Shown piece after piece: positions 3,062 through 17,765 of a stretch of 18,551 nucleotides of DNA. The translations under genes were made by a program, and so were the position numbers. The stretch is from a virus, in the UHGV virus genome UHGV-0121047. One strand, given 5' to 3'. The notes beneath the pieces are model-generated. The model made no database searches and had not been told where the DNA came from. It worked only from the letters and a program-made list of their open reading frames with translations. Each line of letters opens with the position of its first letter. Position 1 is the stretch's first letter.

Positions 3062-3535
3062 TCATTTCTTATGAACCCTGAACCTTATTAGTGAGATGAT
3101 GATACCAGCTAAAGGAACAGCATACAAGTACCAGATATCGTGTATCTTTGTAGTAATCTGTGTAATTGTCAAATCTTGAGCTATGCAGCTAATTGCTGAT
3201 ACTGCCAGTAACATTGCTAAGAAGAACGCCAGTACCATAACAATACTTAGGCAGCCTCTGGCATGGTGTTCATGCTTAATGCACTTATTCTTTTCGTCAA
3301 CAACTCTGTTGTAGTCATTTGCAAAGTCTCTGTAGAAAGCTTTCAGGTATTTTTGATTGTAACCTTCAAAGCAGCCTGTACCATACCAATAATCACCACC
3401 GAAATGTGCTATGATACCAGTCTCTCCATTTGGTTTCGTCACTCTTAAAGAAGTGTGATGGCGAGTATCCTGAAAATCTATCTTGTATCTTTCTTCGTAA
3501 ATCATTCCCCAACCCCTCTCAATCGTTTGTTCCAC
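3062..3535 (-). CDS. putative membrane protein (157 aa; alternative start at 3505 gives ATGA start/stop overlap with upstream gene)
   Basis: Six-frame ORF; C-terminal hydrophobic stretch LSIVMVLAFFLAMLLAVSAISCIA and a second one YLYAVPLAGIIISLI suggest two transmembrane helices. Confidence 0.6.
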   Translation of the reverse strand: MEQTIERGWGMIYEERYKIDFQDTRHHTSLRVTKPNGETGIIAHFGGDYWYGTGCFEGYNQKYLKAFYRDFANDYNRVVDEKNKCIKHEHHARGCLSIVMVLAFFLAMLLAVSAISCIAQDLTITQITTKIHDIWYLYAVPLAGIIISLIRFRVHKK

Positions 3536-4729: not shown

Positions 4730-5015
4730 CGTTAAACTCTCTGACGAAGAAATAGTTGACTTTATTATTACCTACCATAAGGTCAAAGCAGGTATTTTCA
4801 AAAGGTTTGTTGTAGGCATCATATGAAACATATGGGTCAGCTACTTGCTTAGTGCTTAACTTCTTACTTGATGGGTTTAAGAGGCCACCATATAGCTTCT
4901 TGATAGCCTCTTCTACAACAGACCAGATGATTTCGTCAGTAATTTCTTCGTACAGGTCAAGTTCACGCTCTAGTGAGAAGTCACAAATAGGGAAAATAAC
5001 CTGCACTTTACTCAT
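4722..5015 (-). CDS. hypothetical protein (97 aa)
   Basis: Six-frame ORF; 1-nt overlap with the upstream gene (TAATG-type junction). Confidence 0.6.
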   Translation of the reverse strand: MSKVQVIFPICDFSLERELDLYEEITDEIIWSVVEEAIKKLYGGLLNPSSKKLSTKQVADPYVSYDAYNKPFENTCFDLMVGNNKVNYFFVREFNDE

Positions 5016-5416
5016 TAACGGATAACCTGTGTGACTTGAATTGCTTCAGTTACTGATAAATCACCTACTTGCTCTTCTTTGATAAAAGTGAAGGTGAGTT
5101 CAACAGGTTCTTCCTCTTCTTCTTCTTGCTTAACTGGAACACCATTAAGCTCATCAAAGATTGATTGAGTTGTCCAGTCTTCTCCACCATCTGGATAGTG
5201 GATTGCATAAAGAGGAAACTCTAAATTGTACCAAGCAAAAACAGGACAACCATCTACATCATCTCGGCATCTGTGGAGATATGTATTTGTACCTTCAAAA
5301 TGCAAATGGAGATTTCCATTCTTCTCAAAGAGAAGAGCATCTTGCAGGTCTAGTTCCTCATTTTCGCTGTAACGACTGACATCAACTTTAACGTGGATAT
5401 GACTGTTATTATTCAT
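5015..5416 (-). CDS. hypothetical acidic protein (133 aa)
   Basis: Six-frame ORF; contains a poly-Glu tract (QEEEEEEPVE). Confidence 0.6.
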   Translation of the reverse strand: MNNNSHIHVKVDVSRYSENEELDLQDALLFEKNGNLHLHFEGTNTYLHRCRDDVDGCPVFAWYNLEFPLYAIHYPDGGEDWTTQSIFDELNGVPVKQEEEEEEPVELTFTFIKEEQVGDLSVTEAIQVTQVIR

Positions 5417-5807
5417 AAAAACCTCTCTCTGCTTGTTCGATTTTTGCTCTTAAAGTTTCGCAATGCTGTAAATGGTAGTTAGCTTCTTGTTCATGTGTTG
5501 CTAACTGCCTTTCCAGAACAGATTTATAGTAACCTGCAAGTTGCTCTTTTGTCAATGGGTGCTCTGAAATAATATCAAGTCCACTTTCACCAAGAGGGTT
5601 GAATTGTCCATGTTCGTTGACATTGTAAGTCTCAAACTTGAACAGGCCATTGTTCACAGACTCAATAGGTGACATCTCAACAAGCTCTACAGTAAACCGT
5701 GTATATACCTTGTCACCTCTTGAAACCACATTGTTCCCGACAATGCGTACAAGCGAGCCATTACGAGTGTACTTAAAAGTTCCAAAGTCACTAGCCCAAA
5801 GCTTCAT
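5409..5807 (-). CDS. hypothetical protein (132 aa)
   Basis: Six-frame ORF immediately downstream (on minus) of a terminator-like hairpin; 8-nt overlap with the next gene. Confidence 0.6.
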   Translation of the reverse strand: MKLWASDFGTFKYTRNGSLVRIVGNNVVSRGDKVYTRFTVELVEMSPIESVNNGLFKFETYNVNEHGQFNPLGESGLDIISEHPLTKEQLAGYYKSVLERQLATHEQEANYHLQHCETLRAKIEQAERGFYE

Positions 5808-5821
5808 AGTTTTCTCCTTAG

Positions 5822-5848
5822 AAAATAAAAAAGGCTCCCGAAGGAGCC
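5822..5848 (-). terminator. Rho-independent terminator (or attenuator) after the lysozyme gene
   Basis: Plus strand AAAATAAAAAA then GGCTCC-CGAA-GGAGCC; on minus this is a 6-bp GC-rich hairpin with tetraloop followed by a T-run. Confidence 0.6.
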
Positions 5849-5858
5849 TATGAAGATA

Positions 5859-6323
5859 TTACTTTGGATATACACTGTCAAGATAAATGTCAGCTTCCAT
5901 TCTACGTCTGTTTTTCAGTCCGTTTGAAGTGACCTTCTGACCTTTGACTGTAACCTTGTTCCACCACTGCATAGCTTCTGCACAACCTACCTTATTACCA
6001 GCATTGTGGCGCTTGATAAATGTAGAATCCTGCATAGCTGTGATACCGATGTTGTATGTTTCACTTACAAGTGCATCGAACTCATTCTGAGAAGTTGGAA
6101 CCTTGATGGCTTTGTTCACTGCTGCAACGAACTTTTCAACATCTGCGAGAAGATACTGTTCAGCTTGTTCAGCAGTAATTTTCATACCCATCTTAACAGG
6201 TTTTCCGTCAATACGGATTGTCCCATACCCAATTGTTGGGATTCCGGCAGAGTCTTCGTAAGCCTCTAACTTCAGACCTTCGAAGAACTTAATAGCATCT
6301 AAACCTTTTCTTGAGAGTTGCAT
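5859..6323 (-). CDS. lysozyme / endolysin, glycoside hydrolase family 24 (T4 lysozyme-like)
   Basis: N-terminal region EGLKLEAYEDSAGIPTIGYG aligns with the T4 lysozyme catalytic region [21 protein letters not shown] (Glu, Asp, Thr conserved); size 154 aa fits. Confidence 0.9.
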   Translation of the reverse strand: MQLSRKGLDAIKFFEGLKLEAYEDSAGIPTIGYGTIRIDGKPVKMGMKITAEQAEQYLLADVEKFVAAVNKAIKVPTSQNEFDALVSETYNIGITAMQDSTFIKRHNAGNKVGCAEAMQWWNKVTVKGQKVTSNGLKNRRRMEADIYLDSVYPK

Positions 6324-7207
6324 TATGCCTCCCCTGCTGGGTTAACTGTAACTGTTGCCGCATTAGATGTTACAGAGCCACCTGCGCCAGTAACTACACA
6401 GGTGTAGCTTCCTGAATCAGCAGCGGTTGCTCCTTCTTTGGTGTAGGTTGCAGTAGTTGCATCGAGGATGTCTTCCTCATCTTTCTTCCACTGATAACCT
6501 GTTGCACCTGTTGCCACAACATTCAACGTTAAGGTCTCACCTTCATTGATTTCTTGATTGGTTGACTGTTGAGTGATGACAGGAAGTGCATTCACAGTCA
6601 CTGTTGCTGCATCTGAGGTAACACTTGTTCCACCCTCTCCAGATACAACACAAGTGTATGAACCAGCATCAGAAGGTGCTACTGACTGTTTTGTGTAAGT
6701 TGCAGAATTGGCACTAGGGATGTCCTCACCATCCTTCTTCCACTGATATCCAGTGGCGTTAGTTGCTAGAATGCTTAGAGTAAGTGTGCCACCCTCATTG
6801 ACTGTTTGACCTGTCGGTTGCTGAGTAATTGCTGGTGGCTTAATAGCATCCTTCAACTTAGCATTCAACATTGAGAACGGCTTAACTCTTGCCAACCATT
6901 CACAGTAAATTGTGTCAACATCTTTACCATTGATGATTGCATACTGCAAATCCATGAAGAAATCAGCAGTTCTCATCTGTGCACCAACACTGTAAAGCAA
7001 TTCATCACTAAATGGAACTTTGTAGTCTGGTTTGTAGTCAAACTTCTCAACTTCTGCAATATCAGCTTCAGGCCAATATGAACTATAGGTAAGTGGTAAA
7101 ATAGCCTCTTGATATGTTCTAAAATCATACCTCTTACCAGCCTTTACATTTGCAATGAAACCCTTCACAAACTCTTTGAAGTCTGGGTAAGTCTTTGCTT
7201 TAATCAT
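6323..7207 (-). CDS. protein with N-terminal domain paralogous to the adjacent gene plus two C-terminal Ig-like repeats (294 aa)
   Basis: Two about 85-aa repeats each containing TGYQWKKDxEDI...SGSYTCVV..TVTVN, typical of Ig-like (I-set/Big-type) domains; N-terminal 120 aa shares the WPExDI...YKP...LLY...FxMDxQY pattern with the 7204-7575 product. Confidence 0.75.
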   Translation of the reverse strand: MIKAKTYPDFKEFVKGFIANVKAGKRYDFRTYQEAILPLTYSSYWPEADIAEVEKFDYKPDYKVPFSDELLYSVGAQMRTADFFMDLQYAIINGKDVDTIYCEWLARVKPFSMLNAKLKDAIKPPAITQQPTGQTVNEGGTLTLSILATNATGYQWKKDGEDIPSANSATYTKQSVAPSDAGSYTCVVSGEGGTSVTSDAATVTVNALPVITQQSTNQEINEGETLTLNVVATGATGYQWKKDEEDILDATTATYTKEGATAADSGSYTCVVTGAGGSVTSNAATVTVNPAGEA

Positions 7208-7575
7208 TTCTTTTTAGCCTCTAAATGTGCGTTTAGTCTAAAATAACCTTTGTGATGCGGAGATACATCACCAACAACAATACCTTTAACCTTATAGCCT
7301 TTACCAATTACATACTGGATATCCATAAGGAATCTTCCAAGTCCAACAATATGGAACATTGGATATAATAGGTTCTCAGAATCTGGAATATTGATTTCAG
7401 GTTTGTAGGTACGCTGTTCGATTGTTGGTGTAATATCTTCTTCAGGCCATTTGCTGAGTCTCCATGTCAAAGGTGTTGGGATAACATCATTAAGGCTGTA
7501 CCTTTCACCATTTTGCACGGAATTGATATAGGATTGTAGGAAGCAATAAAAGTCTTTTGCACTCTTAGCTTTCAT
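7204..7575 (-). CDS. hypothetical protein, paralog of the N-terminal domain of the Ig-like protein (123 aa)
   Basis: Shared motifs with the 6323-7207 product (MxKAK..DF, GxRY, WPEEDI, YKP, LLY, MDxQY, LNAxL); ATGA start/stop overlap at 7204-7207. Confidence 0.7.
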   Translation of the reverse strand: MKAKSAKDFYCFLQSYINSVQNGERYSLNDVIPTPLTWRLSKWPEEDITPTIEQRTYKPEINIPDSENLLYPMFHIVGLGRFLMDIQYVIGKGYKVKGIVVGDVSPHHKGYFRLNAHLEAKKK

Positions 7576-7622
7576 TAAATATCCTTATAAATAGTTAAAG
7601 GGGCATCAGCCCCTATTCACAC

Positions 7623-8213
7623 TTAAGCTTTGGTCTTAAGTAGGTTCTTAAGTTTTTTAAGATTCATACTCTCATCAAACTTAAAACCAAATCCATTGAC
7701 ATAATCAATGAACTCGGATTTCTTACTGAGTGACAATGCGTAACTCATATCAAAGTTCTTACTTGTTTCTGCGTCTGGACTAGAGTTCACATCAAATGAA
7801 ATTTCTGTAGGCTCTTGCTTACTTTTTCTCATATTATCAGTCAACAAACATGTATAGTTTGCTGGATAGAAGTTTACACTCCCATCAACGTAGCTGTACT
7901 TATTATTATGGATAAGGTTGGAAAATACCTTAAGGAATGTTTCTGAGTCGTGGCAAACAAGTTTGAATTGGCTGCTCTCTCCAAGCGCAACTAATGAGTA
8001 CGGACTTTCACTATCAAAGTCATAATTTGGATTTGATGCCGTCACTGTTACACGCATCAAGTTATTAGCAATAGTCTTCTGTTTAAAAGAATTTTGAACA
8101 TAGTGAAGACCCCTCTCACACTGATTGACTAGCTCTTTAAGTAGGTCATTTGCATATGGTGAGTTAATTGATACAGAGCCGTCACTATTGTAATTAAAAC
8201 TTACTGTTAACAT
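7623..8213 (-). CDS. hypothetical protein (196 aa)
   Basis: Six-frame ORF; no recognisable motif. Confidence 0.65.
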   Translation of the reverse strand: MLTVSFNYNSDGSVSINSPYANDLLKELVNQCERGLHYVQNSFKQKTIANNLMRVTVTASNPNYDFDSESPYSLVALGESSQFKLVCHDSETFLKVFSNLIHNNKYSYVDGSVNFYPANYTCLLTDNMRKSKQEPTEISFDVNSSPDAETSKNFDMSYALSLSKKSEFIDYVNGFGFKFDESMNLKKLKNLLKTKA

Positions 8214-13801: not shown

Positions 13802-14359
13802 ATGAGATATTTGAAGTATGCTTCATGGATTTTCCTAGCTTTACTAGAACCATTTGCAGCATCCCTAGCAGTCATCTTAGCACCTTTCGTAGTTCCATTC
13901 TACAGTGAGAAGAAAGGACATCTACCTTTTGGATTCAGATGGATGGAGACCTATGACAACCCGATTGATGGTGATGAAGGCCACGTTAAAAGATGGGCTA
14001 AGATTAGAAAGATTGGTAAGCTGGGTGTCTACATGCAGAGAGTTGGATGGCTCTGGAGAAACAAAGCTTATAACTTCTCTTACCATGTACTAGGAAGAGA
14101 TATAAAAGATGTTACTAAGTGGAAAGGTAATATCAACGTAAGTTCTGACCCTGAAGATAATCAGACTGGTTATCTCCTAATGTGGAACAGTAATGCTTGG
14201 GGATTATTCGCTTTTATCCCATCAATTAAAGTCTTTGGTAAACAGTTTTACTGGAGAATTTATATTGGATGGAAACTAAAAAGTGTTGTCCCAGAAGAAA
14301 GAGCACTCTCAAGGGAAAGAGTTATGTTGGCATTCTTTATTCATCCACTGAGAAAGTAA
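13802..14359 (+). CDS. hypothetical membrane protein embedded in the tRNA array (185 aa)
   Basis: ATG 13802 with AAGAGG 11 nt upstream; N-terminal hydrophobic helix (SWIFLALLEPFAASLAVILAPFVVPF); Trp-rich body; flanked on both sides by tRNA genes. Confidence 0.7.
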   Translation: MRYLKYASWIFLALLEPFAASLAVILAPFVVPFYSEKKGHLPFGFRWMETYDNPIDGDEGHVKRWAKIRKIGKLGVYMQRVGWLWRNKAYNFSYHVLGRDIKDVTKWKGNINVSSDPEDNQTGYLLMWNSNAWGLFAFIPSIKVFGKQFYWRIYIGWKLKSVVPEERALSRERVMLAFFIHPLRK

Positions 14360-14367
14360 AGATTTAA

Positions 14368-14440
14368 AGGGGATTAGTTTACAAGGTTAAAACCTCGGTC
14401 TTTGAAATCGAAGAAGTTGGTTCAATTCCAACATCCCCCG
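14368..14440 (+). tRNA. tRNA-Gln (anticodon TTG)
   Basis: Anticodon arm TCGGT-CTTTGAA-ATCGA, T arm GTTGG-TTCAATT-CCAAC, acceptor AGGGGAT/ATCCCCC with unpaired 1:72, CCA encoded. Confidence 0.75.
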
Positions 14441-14445
14441 CCAAT

Positions 14446-14520
14446 GCTCCATTACTCCAATTGGCAGAGAGGCCAGACTTAAAATCTGTGTTATGTATCG
14501 GTTCGAATCCGATATGGAGT
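14446..14520 (+). tRNA. tRNA with Leu anticodon TAA but class I architecture
   Basis: Acceptor GCTCCAT/ATGGAGT, D region CCAATTGGCAGAG shared with the CAA tRNA, anticodon loop CTTAAAA, T arm ATCGG-TTCGAAT-CCGAT, CCA encoded. Confidence 0.6.
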
Positions 14521-14529
14521 ACCAAATTT

Positions 14530-14602
14530 AGCGGTATAGCATAACTGGCAATGCAGCAGCCTCTGAAGCTGTCCTATTAAGGTTCAAATCCTTATGCCGC
14601 TG
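14530..14602 (+). tRNA. tRNA-Gln (anticodon CTG)
   Basis: D arm GCAT/ATGC, anticodon arm GCAGC-CTCTGAA-GCTGT, T arm TAAGG-TTCAAAT-CCTTA, acceptor AGCGGTA/TGCCGCT, CCA encoded. Confidence 0.8.
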
Positions 14603-14636
14603 CCACTTCTAAGGATTCTTACGAGAGTCCTTAAAT

Positions 14637-14709
14637 GTGGCCTTATCATAAATGGTAATGACCCATGCTGTGAACATGGTCTATACGGGTTCAAATCCCG
14701 TAGGTCACC
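14637..14709 (+). tRNA. tRNA-His (anticodon GTG)
   Basis: D arm TCAT/ATGA, anticodon arm CCATG-CTGTGAA-CATGG, T arm ACGGG-TTCAAAT-CCCGT, discriminator C (bacterial His-type), CCA encoded. Confidence 0.8.
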
Positions 14710-14717
14710 CCAATTTA

Positions 14718-14792
14718 TAGTCCAAGTAGCTTATATGGTTAAAGCGCGTGTCTGAAAAACATGAGAAGAGGGTTCAAATCCCACTGGACTAC
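14718..14792 (+). tRNA. tRNA-Phe (anticodon GAA)
   Basis: Perfect acceptor TAGTCCA/TGGACTA, D arm GCTT/AAGC, anticodon arm CGTGT-CTGAAAA-ACACG, T-loop GGTTCAAATCC; 4-nt acceptor-to-D linker, so exact ends are uncertain by 1-2 nt. Confidence 0.65.
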
Positions 14793-14810
14793 CAATTTCA
14801 AAGGTGCTTA

Positions 14811-15545
14811 ATGAAAGAGATGACAGAACAAGGTAAGGAGATTTTTAATCTCTTAAAAACCGGTAAAGGGTTTTCTAACCCACTTATTACTGGTGCAGCA
14901 GTTCTCGGTGGAACCGTAGCTGCCTCTACATCACTTGTAAGCTCTATTAGCTCTGTAACAGACCCTACAATGAAGGAGAAGCTTGTTGCTGCTGGACTTA
15001 CAACAGTCCTTCTAAACAGCTTTACAACAAGCCTGACAAGCACTACAGCAACTACTAAGACCCTAACAGACTATGGTCAAAAGTCTATTGATGAGTTTTC
15101 ATCACGTATGCAGGTAGCAAAGGGATACTCCAATGTTATGGGTGCAGCAGGAGAACAAGTTGGTTGTACACCATTCAGTGGTATTATGGGTGTTGCTACA
15201 GAATATGGTCAAAAAGCTATTGACATGATGAACAGTACACTAGATAGTGTTAATGGTGTGTTAAGTGACTTACAAGACGCTATTGATAAGGGTCTTGATA
15301 CTGTTTCTGATTTGGCTAACCAAGCTGTTAGCAAGATTAATGAAGGTATCTCAAAGATTACAGCTTATGCAGATGAAGTTGTGCAGATGATTGAAGAAGA
15401 AGCTGCCCTTATTGCAGAGTACCTTAAAACGAATATCAATGGGTTCTTAGCAGGTATCTTACCAGACTGGTTTGATGATGCTTGTAAAACTGGTGTAATC
15501 GACACTATTGCAACACCAGAAATGAAGAACGCATTGCAGAAATAA
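14811..15545 (+). CDS. hypothetical Ser/Thr-rich protein embedded in the tRNA array (244 aa)
   Basis: In-frame ATG at 14811 with AAAGG 6 nt upstream; the six-frame ORF start at 14748 would lie inside tRNA-Phe and is rejected; Ser/Thr/Ala-rich N-terminal half, helical C-terminal half. Confidence 0.7.
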   Translation: MKEMTEQGKEIFNLLKTGKGFSNPLITGAAVLGGTVAASTSLVSSISSVTDPTMKEKLVAAGLTTVLLNSFTTSLTSTTATTKTLTDYGQKSIDEFSSRMQVAKGYSNVMGAAGEQVGCTPFSGIMGVATEYGQKAIDMMNSTLDSVNGVLSDLQDAIDKGLDTVSDLANQAVSKINEGISKITAYADEVVQMIEEEAALIAEYLKTNINGFLAGILPDWFDDACKTGVIDTIATPEMKNALQK

Positions 15546-15546
15546 T

Positions 15547-15635
15547 GGAAGATTAACCCTAAAAGGTAAGGGAGCAGTTTGCTAAACTGCCAGTAGCTGA
15601 GAAATCGGTGTACCAGTTCAAGTCTGGTATCTTCC
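15547..15635 (+). tRNA. tRNA-Ser (anticodon GCT), class II
   Basis: Perfect acceptor GGAAGAT/ATCTTCC, anticodon arm GCAGT-TTGCTAA-ACTGC, 19-nt variable arm, T arm ACCAG-TTCAAGT-CTGGT, CCA encoded. Confidence 0.8.
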
Positions 15636-15642
15636 TCCAATT

Positions 15643-15715
15643 TGAATCCGTGACAGAAATGGATATGTGCCTGTCTGCAAAACAGGTTTATAAGGGTTCA
15701 AGTCCCTTCGGATTC
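15643..15715 (+). tRNA. tRNA-Cys (anticodon GCA)
   Basis: Perfect acceptor GAATCCG/CGGATTC, anticodon arm CCTGT-CTGCAAA-ACAGG, T-loop GGTTCAAGTCC, CCA encoded. Confidence 0.8.
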
Positions 15716-15756
15716 TCCAAGTTATTTTACTCTCTCTCAATTAAAATAATAATAAT

Positions 15757-16142: not shown

Positions 16143-16163
16143 TTCTATTTGCGGAGGCGCTTA

Positions 16164-17765
16164 ATGGACTTAAATGCTGTTAAGCAGAAGCGAGTGGAAG
16201 ATGTTAGGAAAGTCCTAGCTGGAGAGTTGGGGCTTTCTGATGAAGTAAAAGAAATTATCAAATCATTCGGTAAAGACCCCTCTAAATTCCTTCCAACTCA
16301 AATTCTGACTTTATTAAGATACACACCAGACCAAGTTCGCCTTATCTTTAAATTGATGACTGATAAGAACTATGTAGCCCCTCAACCGGGTTCTCAAGAG
16401 GTCTTTTTAAACACTAATGCTGACTTGGTTCTTTATGGTGGTGCTGCTGGTGCTGGTAAAACTGCCGCATTGTTAATGGACTCTTTAAGATTTATTGAAG
16501 ACCCTAACTATAATGCTGTATATTTCCGTCGAAATACAACACAGTTACAAGGTGGTTTATGGCCTGCTGCAAAGAAACTATTTGGTAAGTTTGGTGGGAT
16601 TCCTCACGAGCAGAAAATGACTATCACATTCCCTTCTGGGGCGACTATCAAGTTTACCTATCTAGAACTTGAAAAGCACGCTGAAGGTCATCAGGGTATT
16701 GAATACTCAGCTATTTACTTTGACGAAGGTACACACTTCTCTGCTTCACAGATTTCATACCTACAAACTCGTCTACGTTCTGGTGCTGAAGGCGATTCAT
16801 ACATGAAGATTTCCATGAACCCAGACAGAGACCATTTTATTTATGATTGGGTAGAACCATTCTTAGATGAAGAAGGTTATCCAGACCCTGAAAAGTGTGG
16901 TCGTATTCGTTGGTATGTAATGAATGATGGTGTGATGGTTTCTGATTGGGAGAGAGACAAGATTCTTGAAATGTTCCCTCTTGAGATTCCTCAAACATAC
17001 ACCTTCATCTCTGGTACGATTGATGATAACCCAATTCTTGACTTCTTAGAACCTAAGTACCGTGGTAAGTTGGAAAACAACACCCCTGTAAACGTTGCAA
17101 GACTTCGTTTCGGTAACTGGAAGGCTCGTGCAGAAGGTTCAAACTATTGGCAAAGACAATGGTGTGAGATTGTTGATTCACTTCCAGAAGATGTATTCGA
17201 TGTTAGAGCATGGGACTTAGCAGCAACTTTACCATCTGAGATTAACCCTAATCCAGACTGGACAGCGGGTGTTAAGATGGGTAAATCTAAAAAAGACGGT
17301 TGCTATTATATCATTGATGTAGTAAGATTTAGAGATAGACCCTCTGGAGTCGAAACACAAATTAATTTGACTGCTGAAAGTGACGGTAAGCGAACTGGTA
17401 TTTTTATCCCTCAAGACCCAGGCGCTGCTGGTAAATCCTACGCAACATCCCTCATCAGGAAACTTGCCGAGAAAGGTTATCGTGCAAGAGCTAAACCAAC
17501 AAATAAAGATAAAGTTACCCGATTTGCGGGGTTTTCTGCTGCTTCTGAAGCTGGACTTGTAAAAGTTTTGAGAGGTAGTTGGAACGAAGCTTATTTCCAA
17601 GAGCTTGAAGGCTTTTGTGGTGATGGCAAAACTAAAGATGACCAAGTGGATGCTACCAGTGATGCTTTCAACAGTCTTAACGAAGTTAAATTATTCAAGC
17701 CACCATCAATGGGTGCTCACACAGACTTAGTGAGAGGAAACCCATATGAGGGGCTTAGACGTTGA
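16164..17765 (+). CDS. terminase large subunit
   Basis: Walker A-type motif LYGGAAGAGKT near the N-terminus and a hydrophobic-DE Walker B-like motif (IYFDEG); about 530 aa; followed directly by a portal-like gene. Start placed at ATG 16164 (GGAGG 7 nt upstream) rather than the in-frame TTG at 16149. Confidence 0.85.
   Translation: MDLNAVKQKRVEDVRKVLAGELGLSDEVKEIIKSFGKDPSKFLPTQILTLLRYTPDQVRLIFKLMTDKNYVAPQPGSQEVFLNTNADLVLYGGAAGAGKTAALLMDSLRFIEDPNYNAVYFRRNTTQLQGGLWPAAKKLFGKFGGIPHEQKMTITFPSGATIKFTYLELEKHAEGHQGIEYSAIYFDEGTHFSASQISYLQTRLRSGAEGDSYMKISMNPDRDHFIYDWVEPFLDEEGYPDPEKCGRIRWYVMNDGVMVSDWERDKILEMFPLEIPQTYTFISGTIDDNPILDFLEPKYRGKLENNTPVNVARLRFGNWKARAEGSNYWQRQWCEIVDSLPEDVFDVRAWDLAATLPSEINPNPDWTAGVKMGKSKKDGCYYIIDVVRFRDRPSGVETQINLTAESDGKRTGIFIPQDPGAAGKSYATSLIRKLAEKGYRARAKPTNKDKVTRFAGFSAASEAGLVKVLRGSWNEAYFQELEGFCGDGKTKDDQVDATSDAFNSLNEVKLFKPPSMGAHTDLVRGNPYEGLRR

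Follow-up and report, generated by a model that had tools for sequence, protein, structure and literature searches.

We analysed positions 5859 to 7575 of an 18,551-nucleotide stretch of viral DNA (UHGV virus genome UHGV-0121047), the whole of which is called the window below. Three genes follow one another there on the minus strand: a gene for a 123-amino-acid (aa) protein at 7204–7575, a gene for a 294-aa protein at 6323–7207 and a gene for a 154-aa GH24 endolysin at 5859–6323. Our subject is the first two, which encode a stand-alone paralog (family phrog_4463) of a capsid-binding domain (CapBD) and a Hoc-like decoration protein of capsid hexamer centres (Hex-Dec), respectively. An earlier reading made without database searches (the sequence-only reading) had placed three minus-strand open reading frames (ORFs) at these coordinates and called the last one a GH24 lysozyme; both statements held, the lysozyme matching Pfam PF00959 (Phage_lysozyme, E = 9e-41) and the phrog_7 endolysin family. 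The overlapping junctions that it had described were likewise found by direct reading of the minus strand. The stop codon of the short gene overlaps the Hex-Dec start by 4 nt in an ATGA (7204–7207, reading ...AAGAAATGATT), and the Hex-Dec stop shares 1 nt, at 6323, with the endolysin start in a TAATG (6321–6325, reading ...GAGGCATAATGCAA). The window is a Felixounavirus. Over the 1,717 bp studied it shares 99.7% identity with Escherichia phage ekra, and at least 80% of this region is covered in 165 phage records.

A phmmer search of the PDB with the 294-aa protein returned two capsid chains over residues 1–290: 9NCF chain S (E = 1e-245), the 'Immunoglobulin-like domain protein' of the Bas63 icosahedral capsid (PMC12609058), and 9C2D chain S (E = 1.6e-162), which, as in 9C3A, is gp20 of the Sf14 capsid (PMC11821841). 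The protein also matched phrog_3995 (E = 8e-171). Hex-Dec of Bas63 and gp20 of Sf14 are known from cryo-electron microscopy (cryo-EM) as monomeric, Hoc-like decoration proteins. Their N-terminal 118–122 residues or so form the CapBD, made of two pseudo-C2-related lobes. In the T=9 capsid this domain occupies the centres of the 60 hexamers next to pentamers; the 20 located on icosahedral 3-fold axes carry no density, and the immunoglobulin (Ig)-like domains point outward and are disordered (PMC12609058; PMC11821841). The Sf14 anchor consists of Arg79 and Arg107, which form salt bridges with Asp221 of three major capsid protein subunits, and at the 3-fold hexamers a shifted Asp221 geometry excludes Hex-Dec (PMC11821841).

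Both arginines are present in the 294-aa protein (AQMR79TAD and LAR107VKPF) and are at least 98% conserved in 44 orthologues. According to the alignments, its CapBD comprises residues 1–122 (6842–7207, minus), nearly identical to that of Bas63 (JohannRWettstein) and about 88% identical to that of Sf14 gp20. The architecture is also the same, with Ig repeats after an N-terminal CapBD, and in all three phages the gene lies between the short paralog and the endolysin. Pfam confirmed the two Ig-like domains that the sequence-only reading had recognised on this longer copy (Ig_3 at E = 1.7e-22, Ig_2, I-set). Domain 1 spans residues ~124–207 (6587–6838, minus; Ig_3, Ig_2 and V-set) and domain 2 residues ~208–290 (6338–6586, minus; I-set at 209–283 and repeat alignment), and the two are identical at 56 of 83 positions. 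Bas63 has four such domains and Sf14 three, a variation already documented for the genus, in which the number runs from one to four (PMC12609058). Published mass spectrometry (MS) of Felix O1 bears on whether the Ig-like protein is part of the virion, a point that the sequence-only reading had set down for checking: the orthologue gp36 (31.6 kDa, 'tail protein') was among the best-detected virion proteins in whole-phage shotgun MS, with a score of 813 and 44% coverage. The Felix O1 paper had already flagged its gene as structural, yet remote from the morphogenesis cluster. The 294-aa protein thus shows all the testable defining features of Hex-Dec and is the Ounavirinae Hex-Dec orthologue; by orthology, it should occupy the 60 pentamer-adjacent hexamer centres of the phage studied here. 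The major capsid protein of this phage is encoded outside the window. In Shigella phage Z31 (L004:2498-3070), which has no short paralog, the Hex-Dec annotation is split into two ORFs, of 134 and 55 aa, and covers only 573 nt, versus 882; either the protein is truncated and has almost no Ig portion, or the sequence contains an error.

Hex-Dec resembles two well-known decoration proteins without belonging to the family of either. It has in common with T5 pb10 (PDB 5LXK, 8ZVI) the order of the domains, the monomer at the hexamer centre and a homologous Ig domain, Ig-like domain 1 matching that of pb10 (8zvi_a, 5lxk_A; E ~ 2e-12). However, the PDB matches cover only the Ig region, residues 129–207, and no sequence similarity was detected in the CapBD; the 123-aa protein had no T5 pb10 match in the PDB sequence search. 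T5 is moreover a T=13 siphophage whose pb10 has a single Ig domain, and it is not known to have a stand-alone paralog of the pb10 binding domain. T4 Hoc is likewise a non-essential monomer at the hexamer centre with an outward string of Ig-like domains, but its domain order is reversed, so that it binds the capsid through its C-terminus. Its capsid-binding domain is also topologically distinct from the pseudo-C2, two-lobed CapBD of Hex-Dec, as noted by the Bas63 authors (PMC12609058). The PHROG matches to 'Hoc-like head decoration' proteins cover only residues ~120–292, that is the Ig region and not the CapBD. Since similarity is confined to the Ig region, Hex-Dec is a member neither of the T4 Hoc family nor of the T5 pb10 family.

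The sequence-only reading had proposed that the 123-aa protein and the N-terminal part of the 294-aa protein arose by local duplication, and pairwise alignment agrees: BLASTP gave 38 identities in 101 positions (38%, E = 2e-16), limited to residues 1–100 of the longer protein. The shared motifs that it had listed are all there (WPEEDI/WPEADI, YKP, LLY, MDIQY/MDLQY and LNAHL/LNAKL), the first differing by one residue between the copies. An alignment of the short proteins (49 distinct sequences) with the N-domains of the long one (44 distinct sequences) has 33 conserved columns in which the two families agree, and these include the motifs WPExDI, YxP, LLY, FxMDxQY and LNAxL. Residues 2–117 of the short protein also match the two capsid chains directly (phmmer; 9NCF_S, E = 8e-12; 9C2D_S, E = 3.6e-11). 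The short paralogs form one clade in a neighbour-joining tree and the Hex-Dec CapBDs of the same phages another, a topology that would fit a single old duplication, although the rooting is not robust. As to the direction of change, the Ig repeats do stand on the longer copy, but that this copy gained them, as first suggested, is not established. The Ig-less copy may instead be the derived one, because single-copy relatives carry a CapBD with Ig-like or Big_2 domains next to the lysozyme.

A fusion of the paralog to Hex-Dec by −1 frameshifting was considered and rejected. A T-AAA-AAG heptamer resembling the dnaX/IS911 slippery site lies at 7210–7216 (minus), just before the paralog stop, and a −1 slip on it would bypass the paralog TAA into the Hex-Dec frame. 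The heptamer is confined to Felixounavirus; Sf14, SUSP1 and the metagenomic contig L007 described below lack it. It is probably incidental, a by-product of the Lys-rich C-terminus of the paralog.

The 123-aa protein has no Pfam match and ends at residue 123, directly past the CapBD, without Ig domains. AlphaFold2 run on a 22-sequence alignment modelled it with a predicted local distance difference test score (pLDDT) of 80.2 and a predicted template modelling (TM) score of 0.79, superseding an earlier run on 10 sequences (pLDDT 56). When this model was compared with the PDB by Foldseek, only 9c2d_S and 9ncf_S were returned at E ≤ 1e-3, with TM scores of 0.75–0.77 over the whole chain; the next match had E = 0.5. 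The paralog is thus predicted to take the complete CapBD fold and, by sequence and predicted fold, belongs to the CapBD domain family. The statement of the sequence-only reading that the shared N-domain matches nothing therefore stands for Pfam and fails for the PDB and PHROGs, both of which contain it. Compared with the Hex-Dec proteins of Bas63 and Sf14, the short protein consists of a CapBD only, at 30–35% identity, lacks the Ig domains and both anchoring arginines and appears in neither structure; its gene is unmentioned in both capsid papers (PMC12609058; PMC11821841). With no display domain, no anchoring arginines and no report of it in virions, it does not qualify as a decoration protein of the Hex-Dec type.

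Homologue searches based on word indexes reached close relatives only. An exhaustive profile search of 1.84 billion cluster representatives, which returned 14 matching proteins, was needed to find the Kolesnikvirus-, Hafnia-phage- and Pectobacterium-phage-like members of the CapBD family. Orthologues of the short paralog are Felix O1 ORF37, VpaE1 gp40, Bas63 bas63_0125, Sf14 gp21 (Mooglevirus) and SUSP1 agp126 (Suspvirus). Another copy, only 45–49% identical, lies in the 87-kb metagenomic contig L007. The paralog is located directly upstream of Hex-Dec in all these genomes, with overlapping or abutting stop and start codons. The junction is an ATGA in Sf14, an 8-nt overlap in SUSP1 and a TAATG in L007, so that a close or overlapping junction is kept in all four paralog-bearing lineages. 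The TAATG overlap between Hex-Dec and the endolysin is not conserved beyond close relatives. No paralog was found in the Kolesnikvirus, Hafnia-phage-like or Pectobacterium-phage-like lineages.

Two of the distant loci deserve a description of their own. Contig L007 (ENA ERZ28599557 scaffold_93) keeps the paralog, Hex-Dec and lysozyme trio at 5001–6726; its paralog is at most 49% identical to anything in the phage collection, and the contig probably represents an undescribed genus-level Ounavirinae-like lineage. The second lineage (L010:4001-4462 and L011:952-1413) has as its sole CapBD gene one for a 153-aa protein, P0102, in which a Lys-rich low-complexity tail replaces the Ig domains. This gene adjoins the lysozyme, and the closest matches of the lineage in the phage collection, at about 37% identity, are Pectobacterium and Yersinia phages.

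To evaluate the constraint on the paralog, ratios of nonsynonymous to synonymous substitution rates (dN/dS) were considered. Between Felixounavirus and Mooglevirus (Sf14) the paralog has a ratio of 0.18–0.20, the Hex-Dec CapBD one of 0.03 and the lysin one of 0.09; within the genus the paralog ratio is 0–0.08. These low values point to a functional gene under purifying selection. The differences between the two families are not evenly spread. We found 38 columns conserved within each family yet different between them, of which 22 fall in paralog positions 74–113, a segment that includes the equivalents of both capsid anchors. In the paralog Gly78 (98% conserved) stands in place of Arg79, and position 107 holds Gln or His in place of Arg; Lys109 alone is common to both proteins. 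The block 71–120 is at the same time the most conserved part of the paralog (91–99%). Divergence patterned in this way points, at the level of sequence, to the rebuilding of a binding surface and not to decay. A conserved difference in charge between the two proteins was also considered, the isoelectric point being 9.1 for the paralog and 5.5 for the CapBD in the window; it was rejected, the paralog orthologues ranging from 5.1 to 9.1.

Published data on the relatives bear on where and when the short paralog acts. Transcripts of Felix O1 ORF36 and ORF37 both peak at 60 min. ORF37 is nevertheless missing from the 17 virion proteins identified in Felix O1 by MS, among which proteins of 9.7–13.7 kDa were detected. 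In the part of the VpaE1 report available to us, the virion proteins named as additional to those of Felix O1 are only gp54, gp58 and gp68, and not gp40. The Sf14 supplement makes no mention of gp21. The paralog is unmodelled in the Bas63 and Sf14 maps, in which the other hexamers are without density, and both phages encode it (PMC12609058; PMC11821841).

A full-length intact paralog ORF is present in 234 of 253 records, and the remaining matches (19/253, about 7%) are to Hex-Dec only. The phages REP9, Z31 and EcF-vB share an identical internal deletion of 226 bp in the paralog, corresponding to window positions 7278–7503, and have lost its start codon. This lineage (REP9 locus L005:2305-2498; Z31, L004; EcF-vB, L006), with isolates from the USA, China and Egypt, is a natural knock-out of the paralog. 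A genome-wide CRISPRi-ART screen of SUSP1 gave fitness values of −0.91 for agp126, −0.39 for agp125 and −0.21 for agp127, all scored 'Not Fit'. Being lost in one natural lineage and non-essential in this knock-down screen, the paralog is dispensable.

Taken together, these data very probably describe a late-expressed, capsid-related gene pair of a Felix O1-type myophage that lies, by an old conserved gene order, just upstream of the endolysin. The CapBD of Hex-Dec would plug as a monomer into the 60 pentamer-adjacent hexamer centres through the Arg79/Arg107–Asp221 contacts, as in the cryo-EM structures of its orthologues, whose anchoring residues are conserved here. The two Ig-like domains would project as a short fibre and, by analogy with T4 Hoc and T5 pb10, might mediate weak adhesion to surfaces, mucus or cells. 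The 123-aa protein would derive from a tandem duplication of the CapBD that preceded the common ancestor of Felixounavirus, Mooglevirus, Suspvirus and one metagenomic lineage. It would have kept the CapBD fold and core motifs, with its anchors rebuilt (R79 to Gly, R107 to Gln or His) and family-specific conservation around them. As regards its role, we infer, tentatively and at somewhat under even chances, that it is a late, non-essential accessory that, as the head assembles, still targets capsid hexamers or Hex-Dec and is not detectably retained in the virion. It might act by transient or competitive binding to a different hexamer state or surface.

Several points weigh against parts of this scheme. 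The Felix O1 virion list was drawn up with a 25% coverage cut-off, the virion proteomes are old, and the Sf14 MS table holds accepted structural proteins only. A 14-kDa monomer placed on a 3-fold axis might be lost from view in icosahedral averaging. The SUSP1 screen yields false negatives: the endolysin also scored 'Not Fit', which is probably one of them.

We weighed other explanations of the short paralog, beginning with the one that removes it from the capsid altogether. It could have kept the fold and turned to a different target, such as a host factor, a defence system or some other protein of the phage. The loss of both capsid-anchoring arginines, an evolution faster than that of the CapBD (dN/dS of 0.20 vs 0.03) and the absence from virions in published proteomes would all suit such a change, and so would its dispensability in laboratory hosts and its loss in one natural lineage, as typical of accessory host-interaction genes. 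Nevertheless, the linkage and overlapping stop and start codons shared with Hex-Dec are conserved in four lineages and expression is late, alongside the structural genes, and we consider a role off the capsid unlikely.

A second alternative is that the two copies divide the capsid between them. The paralog would then be a second, Ig-less decoration of the 20 3-fold hexamers, or be present there in sub-stoichiometric amounts, an arrangement that we regard as improbable. A complete predicted CapBD fold, an anchoring region strongly conserved yet unlike that of Hex-Dec, late expression and a stop codon overlapping the Hex-Dec start are all consistent with it. A vacant and different site exists, given the shifted Asp221 geometry at the Sf14 3-fold hexamers, and P0102, the sole copy in one distant lineage, shows that a CapBD can serve as the main form even when it lacks Ig domains. 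On the other hand, both cryo-EM studies report the other hexamers without density, and Sf14 was also reconstructed in C1. The paralog was not found in the Felix O1 virion proteome, nor in what could be consulted of that of VpaE1, and phages without it (Kolesnikvirus, the REP9 lineage) are viable. That it has so far been missed through symmetry averaging, small size and low copy number is a rather doubtful explanation. Equally doubtful is the broader division of labour in which Hex-Dec serves the 60 edge hexamers and the paralog the 3-fold hexamers or those of the unexpanded procapsid. If the paralog did bind vacant 3-fold hexamers or procapsids, the duplication would let the phage address non-equivalent hexamers; if it binds neither, it is an ordinary accessory gene.

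It is very unlikely that the 123-aa ORF is a decaying, functionless remnant of the duplication. Its deletion in about 7% of the records, the SUSP1 knock-down without fitness effect and a constraint relaxed relative to the CapBD could be taken in that sense. However, dN/dS stays near 0.2 between genera and does not exceed 0.08 within the genus, and the ORF is intact in 234 of 253 records as well as in a lineage only 45–49% identical. The 50-residue block 71–120 is conserved at 91–99%, and the ribosome-binding site and overlapping junction are kept.

The sequence-only reading had favoured another function, in which both paralogs form a lysis or cell-wall-targeting accessory module with the GH24 lysozyme and the Ig domains bind peptidoglycan or surface carbohydrate. 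This is now highly improbable. Cryo-EM has resolved the long protein in place on the capsid, and it is abundant in Felix O1 virions; its N-domain belongs to a structural protein and is unconnected with lysis, the outcome that the reading itself had named as telling against it. Both proteins are without transmembrane segment, signal sequence or cell-wall-binding domain: neither has a hydrophobic segment (maximum 19-residue Kyte-Doolittle hydropathy of 1.0–1.1), and Pfam detected no peptidoglycan-binding domain (LysM, SH3, PG_binding) in either. According to the Felix O1 microarray, the lysin (ORF35) peaks at 25 min, and ORFs 36 and 37 peak at 60 min with other structural genes. What speaks for a lysis module is position, namely the overlapping junctions with the lysozyme in the window and the adjacency of CapBD gene and lysozyme, kept even in distant relatives. 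Yet Hex-Dec and the lysin are separated by a 9-nt spacer in Sf14 and a 2-nt spacer in SUSP1, and an annotated terminator hairpin stands between the CapBD gene and the lysin in Erwinia phage phiEa21-4. The order is furthermore common to the whole neighbourhood and not to this pair only. The order 196-aa gene, CapBD gene, GH24 lysozyme recurs where the CapBD gene is single, in phiEa21-4 and in two contigs, one Hafnia-phage-like and the other Pectobacterium/Yersinia-phage-like. Because distant single-CapBD relatives keep this order, the adjacency to the lysozyme is an old conserved arrangement, and the endolysin is a positional neighbour of the pair, not a functional partner. No holin or spanin adjoins the endolysin; in the minus-strand block, only the ORF at 3062–3535 (minus, 157 aa, hydropathy 2.75) clearly has a transmembrane segment.

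That the 294-aa protein is a tail protein, as GenBank and PHROG labels read, is scarcely credible: Ig-like domains also occur on major tail proteins (phrog_158 and phrog_853 matches), but those matches span only the Ig region (residues ~120–290), Hex-Dec was built into the hexamer density of the capsids of two phages, and the annotation, which the Bas63 authors call wrong (PMC12609058), is already refuted by these cryo-EM assignments.

In most of some 250 related genomes the annotation nevertheless reads 'tail protein' for the long gene and 'hypothetical' for the short; the former would be better named 'hexamer decoration protein (Hex-Dec)' and the latter 'Hex-Dec capsid-binding-domain paralog'. 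Hex-Dec itself has been known since 2025, and the novelty here is modest: a conserved, Ig-less paralog, apparently with a rebuilt surface, of a rare capsid-binding fold. The CapBD fold, which in the PDB is limited to two chains, anchors cargo at defined sites of a T=9 capsid. A natural, divergent copy without Ig domains offers a comparison for the determinants of hexamer-class specificity, and could guide capsid-display engineering, as has been done with the T5 pb10 anchor.

Signals on the minus strand were also read around the three genes. A strong intrinsic terminator at 5832–5849, a hairpin with a 7-bp stem (5 GC pairs) and a T-run (TTTTTATTTT), lies directly 3' of the endolysin stop and is the end of the transcription unit. 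A GC-rich hairpin, AGGGGC-TGAT-GCCCCT, was read directly at 7599–7614, between the gene for the 196-aa protein and the ribosome-binding site of the paralog, and is kept in REP9. The terminator scan did not call it, owing to a weak T-run; it may mark an operon boundary or stabilise the RNA. The scan for sigma-70 promoters found fewer sites than in shuffled controls and is therefore uninformative on a late promoter.

The gene for the 196-aa protein (7623–8213, minus; phrog_4034) immediately precedes the CapBD gene or genes in all the relatives inspected, the distant phiEa21-4 (gp39), L009, L010 and L012 among them. Its product has no PDB match and no significant Pfam match. Phage_Inh_N was considered for it and rejected, the domain being flagged as 'faint' on a distant homologue only and not reproduced for the window protein. 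The T4 gene inh adjoins hoc.

Further along, the window carries 23 tRNA genes and a few small ORFs at 10867–15719 (plus), flanked by a gene for a DUF2828 RNA-binding protein (9286–10701) and by the large terminase ORF (16149–17765). Such a tRNA array is typical of Felix O1-like phages.

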